Below are positions 1,435-55,100 of a DNA stretch of 64,000 bases, piece after piece; positions within the stretch are counted from its first letter, which is position 1; every line of letters starts with the position of its first letter. Both the position numbers and the translations under genes were made by a program. The stretch lies in NCBI RefSeq assembly GCF_003334405.1, contig NZ_QOWM01000003.1. One strand, written 5' to 3'. The stretch is from Escherichia coli (GTDB taxonomy: Bacteria; Pseudomonadota; Gammaproteobacteria; Enterobacterales; Enterobacteriaceae). The notes beneath the pieces are model-generated. The model did no database searches. It was not told the origin of the DNA and was given only the letters and a program-made list of their open reading frames with translations.

Positions 1435-1530
1435 TAAAAAAAGCCGGCATCATGCCGGCCCAAAAAATATAAACAAGACGATAAAAGGCTAATAACGGAG
1501 GCATCATGACACAGAAAAATAAAAAGGTAT
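1435..1530 (-). ncRNA. Candidate small RNA ending at a strong intrinsic terminator (position matches RseX of K-12 as recalled)
   Basis: Minus-strand hairpin GCCGGCATGATGCCGGC (1443..1459) followed by a T8 run, in the yedR-yedS intergenic region; 5' end not determinable from sequence. Confidence 0.3.
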
Positions 1531-1689
1531 AATTGTATTCAGTGCTAATATATTGATTAAATGAATTAATAAAGCCGATATCAAAGATAAATAAAATCGC
1601 TCAAAACGATTTTTACTGTATTCACTGCCGTTGCGCAAAATTTATCTATTTGTTCAAAAAATGATTGAGTCTTGACTGGCTCATTCAAT

Positions 1690-2094: not shown

Positions 2095-2790
2095 ATGGAC
2101 TTACAACACTGGCAGGCACAGTTCGAAAACTGGTTGAAAAACCATCATCAGCACCAGGACGCGGCCCATGACGTGTGTCATTTTCGCCGCGTCTGGGCTA
2201 CGGCACAGAAGCTGGCGGCAGATGACGATGTCGATATGCTGGTGATTTTAACCGCCTGTTATTTTCACGATATTGTGAGCCTGGCGAAAAATCATCCGCA
2301 GCGGCAGCGTTCTTCAATCCTGGCGGCAGAAGAGACGCGTCGCCTGCTCTGTGAAGAGTTCGAGCAATTTCCGGCGGAGAAAATTGAGGCCGTTTGTCAT
2401 GCCATTGCCGCTCACAGTTTCAGCGCGCAAATCGCCCCCTTAACAACGGAAGCTAAAATCGTCCAGGATGCGGATCGGCTGGAAGCCCTGGGGGCGATTG
2501 GCCTGGCGCGCGTGTTTGCCGTTTCAGGGGCATTGGGCGTGGCGCTGTTTGATGCCGAAGATCCGCTCGCACAGCATCGCCCGCTTGATGATAAACGCTA
2601 CGCGCTGGATCATTTCCAGACTAAGTTGTTGAAGCTACCGCAAACCATGCAAACCGTAAGAGGCAAGCAGCTGGCGCAGCACAACGCGCAATTTTTAGTC
2701 GAGTTTATGGCGAAGCTCAGTGCCGAACTGGCGGGGGAGAATGAAGGTGTCGATCACAAGGTGATAGATGCGTTTTCACCCGCGGGCTAA
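2095..2790 (+). CDS. yedJ: HD-domain phosphohydrolase YedJ
   Basis: 231-aa ORF with HD-type motifs (CHFRRVW, FHDIV); synteny upstream of dcm. Confidence 0.85.
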
Positions 2791-2856
2791 GCGCGTGGCC
2801 CTAAATGGCTGTAATTATGTTAACCTGTCGGCCATCTCAGATGGCCGGTTAAATCT

Positions 2857-4275
2857 ATGCAGGAAAATATATCAGTAACCGATTCATACAGCACCGGGAA
2901 TGCCGCACAGGCAATGCTGGAGAAACTGCTGCAAATTTATGATGTTAAAACGCTGGTGGCTCAGCTTAATGGTGTGGGTGAGAATCACTGGAGCGCGGCA
3001 ATTTTAAAACGTGCGCTGGCGAATGACTCGGCATGGCACCGTTTAAGTGAGAAAGAGTTCGCCCATCTGCAAACGTTGTTACCCAAACCACCGGCACATC
3101 ATCCGCATTATGCGTTTCGCTTTATCGATCTATTTGCCGGAATTGGCGGCATCCGTCGCGGTTTTGAATCGATTGGCGGACAGTGCGTGTTTACCAGCGA
3201 ATGGAACAAACATGCGGTACGCACTTATAAAGCCAATCATTATTGCGACCCGGCGACGCATCATTTTAATGAAGATATCCGCGACATCACCCTCAGCCAT
3301 AAAGAAGGCGTGAGTGATGAGGCGGCGGCGGAACATATTCGTCAACACATTCCTGAACACGATGTTTTACTGGCCGGTTTCCCTTGTCAGCCATTTTCGC
3401 TGGCTGGCGTATCGAAAAAGAACTCGCTCGGGCGGGCGCACGGTTTTGCCTGCGATACTCAGGGCACGCTGTTCTTTGATGTGGTGCGCATTATCGACGC
3501 GCGTCGTCCGGCGATGTTTGTGCTCGAAAACGTCAAAAACCTGAAAAGCCACGACCAGGGTAAAACGTTCCGCATCATCATGCAGACGCTGGACGAACTG
3601 GGCTATGACGTGGCTGATGCAGAAGATAACGGGCCGGACGATCCGAAAATCATCGATGGTAAACATTTTCTGCCGCAGCACCGTGAACGCATCGTGCTGG
3701 TGGGTTTTCGTCGCGATCTTAACCTGAAAGCCGATTTTACTCTGCGTGATATCAGCGGATGTTTCCCTGCGCAGCGAGTGACGCTGGCGCAGCTGCTGGA
3801 CCCGATGGTCGAGGCGAAATATATCCTGACGCCGGTACTGTGGAAGTACCTCTATCGATATGCGAAAAAACATCAGGCGCGCGGTAACGGCTTCGGTTAT
3901 GGAATGGTTTATCCGAACAATCCGCAAAGCGTCACCCGTACGCTGTCTGCGCGTTATTACAAAGATGGCGCGGAAATTTTAATCGATCGCGGATGGGATA
4001 TGGCCACGGGTGAAAAAGACTTTGACGATCCGCTGAATCAGCAACATCGTCCACGTCGGTTAACGCCTCGGGAATGCGCGCGCTTAATGGGTTTTGAAGC
4101 GCCGGGAGAAGCGAAATTCCGCATTCCGGTTTCGGACACTCAGGCCTATCGCCAGTTCGGTAACTCGGTGGTCGTGCCGGTCTTTGCCGCGGTGGCAAAA
4201 CTGCTTGAGCCAAAAATCAAACAGGCGGTGGCGTTGCGTCAGCAAGAGGCACAACATGGCCGATGTTCACGATAA
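2857..4275 (+). CDS. dcm: DNA cytosine-5 methyltransferase Dcm (CCWGG)
   Basis: 472 aa; C5-MTase motifs FAGIGG (AdoMet), GFPCQPFS (catalytic PCQ), FVLENVKNL (ENV); 3' end overlaps vsr. Confidence 0.95.
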
Positions 4276-4726
4276 GGCCACACGCAGCAAAAATATGCGC
4301 GCGATTGCCACGCGTGATACGGCGATTGAGAAGCGCCTCGCCAGTTTGTTAACCGGGCAGGGACTGGCGTTTCGCGTTCAGGACGCCAGTCTGCCCGGAC
4401 GCCCGGATTTTGTCGTTGATGAATATCGCTGCGTGATATTTACCCATGGCTGCTTCTGGCATCATCATCACTGCTATCTGTTTAAAGTGCCTGCGACTCG
4501 AACCGAGTTCTGGCTGGAGAAGATAGGTAAAAATGTTGAGCGCGATCGCCGCGATATCAGTCGCTTGCAGGAACTCGGCTGGCGCGTATTGATTGTCTGG
4601 GAGTGCGCGTTACGTGGGCGCGAGAAGCTGACGGATGAAGCGCTTAGCGAGCGTCTGGAAGAGTGGATCTGCGGCGAAGGTGCCAGCGCGCAGATCGACA
4701 CGCAGGGGATTCATTTACTCGCTTGA
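4256..4726 (+). CDS. vsr: Very-short-patch repair endonuclease Vsr
   Basis: 156 aa starting [17 protein letters not shown] inside the dcm 3' end (20-bp overlap 4256..4275); [10 protein letters not shown] motif. Confidence 0.95.
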
Positions 4727-5635
4727 TGCGTCCTGAATAACTGGCGCAACTACGGGTTTTGCCGGAAAGAGATATTTTCCCAACGTGACCAGCACCACCG
4801 CGAAGACAATTACGCCGAGCGCCAGCCATTCAATCTTCGAAAGCGTCTCTCCACCCAGTCCCGTACCCAGCAAGACCGCGACCACCGGGTTAACGTAGGC
4901 GTAGCTGGTGGCGAGAGCCGGACTGACGTTGCGGATTAAATACATATAAGCGTTGATGGCGATAATCGAACCAAACAGCGCCAGATAGCCGACCGCAAGG
5001 AAGCCTGAAAGGGAAGGGAGCGCCGTCCGTTTTTCACCCGCAATCATCGACGCGATCATTAACACCACGCCTGCCGCCAGCATCTCAATCGCACCCGCCA
5101 TCATCCCTACAGGTAAGGTAATGTGCGAGCCATAAACTGAGCCAAACGCCCAGCTAATCGAGCCGATTAAAATCAGAATCGCGCCCCACGGATTGCCGCT
5201 TAAATTTCCACCGCTATTGAGCATGATGATTCCGGCAAGCCCAATGGCAATACCCACCCATTCCAGTTTGCGCGTTTTAATGCCAAACAGGCGGCTGAAG
5301 CACAGGGTAAAGAGGGGCACGGTTGCAACCACTACGGCGGCGATGCCGGAAGGAACATTTTGATGTTCGGCAACCGTCACCATGCCATTACCGACAGCCA
5401 GCAATAACAGGCCAATCAGCGCGGCATTGAGCAGCGGACGTAGCGGGGGGAGCTTGTGTCCGCGCAGTAGCAAAAATGCCAGCAATAAAATACCGGCTGC
5501 CAGGAATCGAACGCCCGCCATCATTAATGGAGGCCAGCTTTCCACGCCAATCCGAATGACAAAATAGGTTGAGCCCCAAATGATATACAACGCAAACAGC
5601 GCGCCAAAAAGCGGTAATAACTGGCGGAAACGCAT
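4715..5635 (-). CDS. yedA: EamA/DMT-family transporter YedA
   Basis: 306-aa polytopic membrane protein; synteny. Confidence 0.9.
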   Translation of the reverse strand: MRFRQLLPLFGALFALYIIWGSTYFVIRIGVESWPPLMMAGVRFLAAGILLLAFLLLRGHKLPPLRPLLNAALIGLLLLAVGNGMVTVAEHQNVPSGIAAVVVATVPLFTLCFSRLFGIKTRKLEWVGIAIGLAGIIMLNSGGNLSGNPWGAILILIGSISWAFGSVYGSHITLPVGMMAGAIEMLAAGVVLMIASMIAGEKRTALPSLSGFLAVGYLALFGSIIAINAYMYLIRNVSPALATSYAYVNPVVAVLLGTGLGGETLSKIEWLALGVIVFAVVLVTLGKYLFPAKPVVAPVIQDASSE

Positions 5636-7156: not shown

Positions 7157-9681
<2,525 letters not shown>

Positions 9682-9861: not shown

Positions 9862-9948
9862 AACACATCAGATTTCCTGGTGTAACGAATTTTTTAAGTG
9901 CTTCTTGCTTAAGCAAGTTTCATCCCGACCCCCTCAGGGTCGGGATTT
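9862..9948 (+). ncRNA. dsrA: DsrA small regulatory RNA
   Basis: 87-nt sequence AACACATCAGATTTCCTGGTGTAACG...CCCGACCCCCTCAGGGTCGGGATTT recognised as DsrA, ending in a GC hairpin plus T-run. Confidence 0.9.

Positions 9949-51747: not shown

Positions 51748-55100
<3,353 letters not shown>

Follow-up and report, generated by a model that had tools for sequence, protein, structure and literature searches.

Overlapping dcm and vsr genes in an Escherichia coli chromosomal region and their conservation among Enterobacteriaceae

Genes and gene products of the locus

The window, that is the whole stretch of 64,000 nucleotides of E. coli DNA analysed here, contains on its plus strand the dcm gene (2857..4275), as derived from the ORF list and the sequence. 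It extends from an ATG to a TAA stop codon (4273-4275) and encodes a DNA cytosine-5 methyltransferase of 472 amino acids, predicted to act on CCWGG sites. The vsr gene at 4256..4726, on the same strand, begins with the ATG at 4256 and encodes the T:G mismatch endonuclease of very-short-patch (VSP) repair, which consists of 156 amino acids. Upstream of dcm lie, likewise on the plus strand, drpB (yedR; 1774-2055, from the annotation) and yedJ (2095-2790), the product of which matches PRK10119 with 458 bits. Downstream, yedA is encoded on the minus strand, and the 3' ends of the convergent genes vsr and yedA overlap by 12 nt (4715..4726), as they do in K-12. Internal stop codons or frameshifts were found neither in dcm nor in vsr and both genes have the K-12 lengths; the two reading frames proposed in the initial annotation are thus intact.

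dcm and vsr share 20 nt on the plus strand, including the dcm stop codon (4256..4275), and the reading frame of vsr is shifted by +1 against that of dcm (dcm in frame 1, vsr in frame 2). The shared stretch comprises vsr codons 1-6 with two bases of codon 7 and, in the other frame, the last six sense codons of dcm followed by the stop, the TAA being formed within the vsr codons Asp6-Lys7 (GAT AAG). The 20-bp overlap in different frames and the position of the vsr start codon inside the final dcm codons, both claimed at the outset, proved exact when the ORF list and the raw sequence were consulted (ATG at 4256, dcm stop at 4273-4275). The PGAP annotation of a 100%-identical genome, mapped to the window, places dcm at 2857-4275 and vsr at 4256-4726. 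Within the dcm codons, a GAGG at 4246..4249 (plus strand) is separated from the vsr ATG by a 6-nt spacer and resembles a Shine-Dalgarno (SD) sequence that would serve vsr; its GA (alignment columns 41-42) is at least 90% conserved in 57 species.

Dcm matches NCBIfam PRK10458 with 950 bits (cut-off 710), residues 1-469 aligning with model positions 1-471, and TIGR00675 with 349 bits. Its Pfam domains are PF00145 (E = 1.8e-76) and, at the N-terminus, PF18284 (E = 4.8e-19). The translation contains the FxGxG motif as DLFAGIGG, the PC motif as GFPCQPFS and the ENV motif as ENVKN, motifs of C5 methyltransferases of which the first binds S-adenosylmethionine (SAM) and the second provides the catalytic cysteine. 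The protein is identical to K-12 Dcm in 470 of 472 residues, the differences being E301G and R470C, and from this 99.6% identity it would be expected to methylate the inner C of CCWGG. No restriction endonuclease gene lies next to dcm, whose neighbours encode a phosphohydrolase (yedJ) and an exporter (yedA). Because no endonuclease gene is adjacent, Dcm is classified as a solitary methyltransferase and not as part of a type II (EcoRII-like) restriction-modification system.

Vsr matches TIGR00632 with 182.7 bits (cut-off 97.85; residues 1-118 on model positions 1-119) and Pfam PF03852 with E = 2e-39. The crystal structure 1CW0 matches residues 2-156 (E = 7e-106) with one substitution, T131S, which is also the sole difference from K-12 Vsr (155 of 156 residues identical). 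All catalytic (D51, H64, H69 and D97), zinc-binding (C66, H71, C73 and C117) and intercalating residues (F67, W68 and W86) are present. They are invariant in 81 compared sequences with the exception of F67, which is Tyr in three species that lack dcm at the locus. Given the identity to the K-12 enzyme in 155 of 156 residues, the Vsr protein of the window would nick 5' of the T in T:G mismatches at CTWGG/CCWGG.

Judged by how near-identical genomes are annotated, dcm-vsr is the sole DNA-modification module in the window, as had been stated in the initial annotation. Elsewhere in the window, a porin gene on the minus strand (65-1194) is split by a frameshift into two ORFs (65-739 and 733-1194) and is annotated as a frameshifted pseudogene in a near-identical genome. 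The diguanylate cyclase gene dgcQ (7157-8851, plus strand) is interrupted by an internal stop codon at 8093-8095, leaving ORFs at 7157-8092 and 8096-8851; the annotation of strain FORC_069 lists it as a pseudogene. Rfam identifies two small RNAs, RseX (1436-1525, minus strand, 96.7 bits) and DsrA (9862-9948, plus strand, 102.5 bits). According to the FORC_069 annotation, an islet at about 22820-26091 between fliE and yedF carries emrE, ybcL, ybcM and an IS200/IS605 transposase, together with a truncated helix-turn-helix gene and a truncated gene of an SOS-response peptidase. In K-12, emrE, ybcL and ybcM are located in the DLP12 prophage. Colinearity of the whole window with FORC_069, including the P2-like prophage of that strain, was considered and rejected since it fails beyond about 43 kb; from there on the window resembles strain 537-20 and continues from yecA to tap without a prophage. 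otsB and otsA, on the same strand, overlap by 26 nt at about 53678-53703 (mapped from locus L085); the window thus contains a longer co-directional overlap than the 20 nt shared by dcm and vsr.

The overlap in Enterobacteriaceae and the loss of dcm

One genome per GTDB species was scanned, which yielded 80 loci with Vsr relatives of 77-98% identity, for each of which we determined where vsr starts and where the Dcm-like frame upstream of it lies. Of the 63 enterobacterial species with an intact dcm at the locus, about 50 retain the 20-nt overlap; by residue alignment it was found in 51 loci plus the window, three of them with a GTG start. In two Raoultella loci the start is probably a GTG 3 nt downstream, resulting in a 17-nt overlap. 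An overlap of 17 nt was assigned to four loci, two of which, both of Superficieibacter, probably have 14 nt, and two Siccibacter loci overlap by 35 nt. dcm and vsr are apart in six loci, namely four of Buttiauxella, L071 with a 35-nt gap and L083 with a 12-nt gap; Enterobacter sp. Ag1 is among the loci with separated genes. In the four Buttiauxella loci (L054, L056, L060, L065; about 2035-2703) an ORF of 172 amino acids on the opposite strand, with a signal-peptide-like N-terminus, separates dcm from vsr, which are thereby uncoupled. Based on the overlap lengths across the 80 loci, it was concluded that the overlap, although not obligatory, is an ancestral and stable trait of the Escherichia-Citrobacter-Salmonella-Klebsiella-Enterobacter group.

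The variation within the overlap is not evenly distributed over the two frames. Column entropy amounts to 4.17 bits at the third positions of vsr codons, 2.38 bits at the first and 1.09 bits at the second, and 37 variants of the Dcm C-terminal tail contrast with 10 variants of the Vsr N-terminus. These values indicate that the Vsr frame dictates which of the shared bases may change and that the Dcm tail merely follows.

In 17 of the 80 loci neither strand contains a Dcm-like sequence up to 3 kb from vsr, which nevertheless retains its syntenic position beside yedA (L029, L036-L038, L040, L042, L047, L048, L058, L059, L061, L063, L068, L070, L073, L076 and L084, with vsr at about 3001). The species concerned include Kosakonia, Phytobacter, Pseudescherichia vulneris, Klebsiella oxytoca and K. 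spallanzanii. In 13 of these loci vsr starts 11-18 nt past the yedJ stop codon and has an SD sequence of its own; in the remaining four (K. oxytoca, K. spallanzanii, Pseudescherichia vulneris and UBA7338) yedJ was not found upstream of vsr. Klebsiella indica contains a dcm remnant of 51 codons (L034:2821-3020), in which Dcm residues 297-347 are joined to the tail and which still overlaps vsr by 20 nt. This remnant indicates that dcm was lost by deletion.

The catalytic and zinc-binding residues examined are kept in the stand-alone Vsr proteins, and Tyr replaces F67 in 3 of the 17. The median dN/dS is 0.073 for stand-alone vsr vs 0.09 for dcm-linked vsr; stand-alone vsr is under purifying selection as strong as that acting on dcm-linked vsr. 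It plausibly stays expressed because it still follows yedJ within one transcription unit.

Transcription of the operon and translation of vsr

The initial annotation had described the methylase and its repair enzyme as a co-transcribed pair in a known arrangement, in agreement with published work in which dcm partly overlaps vsr in a shared operon (PMC4444293; PMC12907096; PMC4924334). In the dcm-6 mutant, which has a nonsense mutation at codon 45, vsr activity is lost too (PMC4444293), and full-length transcripts place yedR (drpB), yedJ, dcm and vsr on one E. coli transcript (bioRxiv 10.1101/262964). In the window, a promoter-like site upstream of drpB on the plus strand (1506..1533) consists of ATGACA, a 16-nt spacer and TATAAT and, judged by its 11 of 12 consensus matches only, is a candidate promoter of the extended operon. 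It is the strongest promoter-like site of the region, in which the pattern scan returned 6 sites vs 4.3 expected from shuffled sequences, and it coincides in part with the 5' portion of rseX, which is encoded on the minus strand. A sigma-70 promoter serving vsr from within dcm was also considered and dropped; the pattern scan of the plus strand within dcm gave no match, which constitutes weak negative evidence. The lack of a site inside dcm and the strong site upstream of drpB are consistent with co-transcription from upstream of dcm and do not prove it.

The spacer between yedJ and dcm (2816-2856) contains a TGnTAAYCT motif (TG at 2818-2819, TAACCT at 2821-2826) and, directly before the dcm ATG, a GGCCGGTTAA block. 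Conservation of both the motif and the block extends from Escherichia to Enterobacter and Klebsiella, and the motif may represent a promoter of the extended -10 type. There is no obvious Shine-Dalgarno sequence for dcm. A perfect 9-bp inverted repeat, CGGCCATCT-C-AGATGGCCG, occupies 2829-2847, 10 nt 5' of the dcm start; it is present in Escherichia loci and not in those of Citrobacter, Salmonella or Enterobacter.

Where Vsr synthesis begins determines whether the overlap is real. The overlap is not a product of chance or of an artefactual choice of the start codon. The next in-frame ATG, at 4295 (codon 14), lies 20 nt past the dcm stop, and if Vsr truly began there the two genes would merely abut. 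N-terminally truncated Vsr is able to fold and has been crystallised, from residue 21 in 1VSR and from residue 23 in 1ODG. Such a start is nevertheless extremely improbable in view of the strong conservation of residues 1-13 in 57 species, with only 10 distinct N-termini, and of the substitutions, which keep the codon phase of vsr across the whole overlap. The NCBIfam and Pfam Vsr models align from residue 1 or 2, the 1CW0 structure holds residues 2-156, and for Vsr without its first 14 residues diminished endonuclease and repair activity has been reported (PMC2715241). The GAGG precedes the ATG at 4256 at a distance of 6 nt, whereas only an A-rich stretch is found before 4295, and species that lack dcm at the locus use the same vsr ATG behind an SD sequence of their own, 11-18 nt after the yedJ stop. 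A further alternative is programmed +1 ribosomal frameshifting in the overlap, by which Vsr would be produced as a Dcm-Vsr fusion with no initiation of its own. In favour of it, the vsr frame is open upstream to 4094 and, over the few shared bases, differs from that of dcm by +1. Arguing against this mechanism, which has hardly any probability, are the SD sequence and the ATG or GTG conserved in the same column in nearly all species, the 17 species without dcm at the locus in which a conserved vsr keeps the same start, and the activity of Vsr when expressed alone, as the 18-kDa enzyme known from the crystal structures.

Initiation at the ATG at 4256 could in turn be controlled by the structure of the mRNA. 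According to this proposal, a conserved RNA hairpin masks the vsr ribosome-binding site and is melted by ribosomes that finish dcm, so that translation of the two genes is mechanically coupled. A hairpin is indeed predicted for 4225-4285 of the window, in which part of the SD sequence is paired and the 3' arm contains the dcm stop; the fold energy of 120 nt is -41.1 kcal/mol (z = -2.08), the central 72 nt reach z = -3.97, and the abolition of vsr activity by the dcm-6 nonsense mutation (PMC4444293) would fit. That polarity, however, is explained equally well by Rho-dependent transcriptional polarity or mRNA decay. In the hairpin of the window the AUG resides in the loop and the SD-AUG stretch has a mean unpaired probability of 0.64. 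RNAalifold applied to 57 species did not recover the hairpin; in the named structure 67.8% of the cells were paired vs 67.9% in shuffles, pairs altered on both sides numbered 5 vs 5.2 in shuffles, and the covariation score was only marginally high (33 of 500 shuffles). Per-species folds had z < -1.5 in only 12.5% of the cases, with a median z of -0.49. Since alignment fold, pairing, covariation and per-species z were all unsupportive, a conserved hairpin device over the vsr start was rejected and the coupling mechanism is regarded as unlikely. From these tests it follows that the 4225-4285 hairpin is confined to E. coli and the species nearest to it. A literature search on translational coupling or gene overlap of vsr and dcm found nothing.

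In the preferred model, the GAGG and the ATG of vsr would act from within the last dcm codons on an mRNA shared by both genes. Translation of vsr would start either afresh, at an SD-AUG of its own that is mostly unpaired, or through ribosomes that terminate 17 nt downstream and then re-initiate. Because the ribosome-binding site and the ATG of vsr lie inside dcm, the nuclease would be made from the transcript of the enzyme that creates its substrate.

Function, relation to K-12 and implications

Dcm methylates CCWGG, and Vsr corrects the T:G mismatches that deaminated 5-methylcytosine leaves behind; VSP repair and mismatch repair are reported to be separated in time, VSP repair operating mainly in the stationary phase (PMC2715241). 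In the strain studied here, a deaminated 5-methylcytosine in CCWGG would give rise to a T:G mismatch, and after a nick by Vsr 5' of the T the C would be restored through DNA polymerase I and ligase, which amounts to very-short-patch repair. Relative to dinucleotide-preserving shuffles of the whole window, CTWGG is about six-fold under-represented (31 vs 181 +/- 12 expected) and CCWGG 1.8-fold over-represented (165 vs 92 +/- 10 expected), a bias that is consistent with long-term VSP repair and that is confounded by codon usage and general CTAG avoidance. Bhagwat and McClelland reportedly proposed in 1992 that VSP repair has shaped the oligonucleotide abundance of E. coli. Within dcm-vsr there is 1 CCWGG site in 1870 nt vs about 4.8 expected from the density in the window, a deficit too weak statistically to be interpreted.

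The module of the window is almost certainly the chromosomal dcm-vsr module of E. coli. The region 2700-4800 was found in 5359 of 5426 complete E. coli genomes and is 100% identical in several E. coli chromosomes, including those of O104:H4 strains. In K-12 MG1655 (b1961/b1960), dcm is located at 2030899-2032317 and vsr at 2030448-2030918, with the same 20-nt +1 overlap. Common to both are the gene order drpB-yedJ-dcm-vsr followed by the convergent yedA, protein lengths of 472 and 156 amino acids, the SD sequence, the start codon and the 12-nt overlap with yedA. The two differ in three amino acids in total (E301G and R470C in Dcm, T131S in Vsr). Inside the overlap they differ in a single base, a C-to-T change at 4264 that is silent at Asp3 of Vsr and converts Arg470 of Dcm to Cys. 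Of 5308 E. coli genomes, 148 carry the exact 56-nt junction allele of the window. Descriptions of the dcm-vsr overlap date back to 1990. In every feature that can be tested by sequence, the module is a member of the K-12 dcm-vsr type and already known; the same layout is annotated in K-12 and reported in the literature, so the earlier judgement that the arrangement is not novel holds.

Vsr proteins of restriction-modification systems, e.g. those of Neisseria, are likewise encoded beside a C5 methyltransferase whose deamination products they repair (PMC12907096). Unlike these systems, the window has no restriction endonuclease gene adjacent to the pair, the neighbours being yedJ and yedA. Caulobacter crescentus combines a cytosine methyltransferase, the solitary ScmA, with a Vsr-like nuclease, VsrA, and thus exhibits the same pairing (PMC12907096). 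The vsrA and scmA genes, however, lie nearly opposite to each other on the Caulobacter chromosome, whereas the genes of the window overlap and would be on one transcript. The enterobacterial vsr loci without an adjacent dcm are closer to the Caulobacter situation than the window is.

The practical value of these results lies in the confidence of the annotation: as predicted from its sequence, the strain should be Dcm+ and Vsr+. This phenotype bears on Dcm-sensitive restriction sites in cloning, on CCWGG C-to-T hot spots and on 5-methylcytosine signals in sequencing. The comparative data add small refinements, namely that the Vsr frame dominates the overlap, that no conserved hairpin couples the two genes, and that dcm has been lost recurrently with retention of vsr. 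A literature search on CCWGG methylation in Kosakonia found nothing. Repeated loss of dcm from the yedJ-dcm-vsr-yedA locus with maintenance of vsr would, if the genomes concerned encode no CCWGG methyltransferase elsewhere, point to a selectable role of Vsr that is independent of Dcm, an interpretation that we put forward tentatively and with some doubt. If it is true, such a role may consist, for example, in shaping the CCWGG/CTWGG content of the genome or in the repair of other T:G mismatches.
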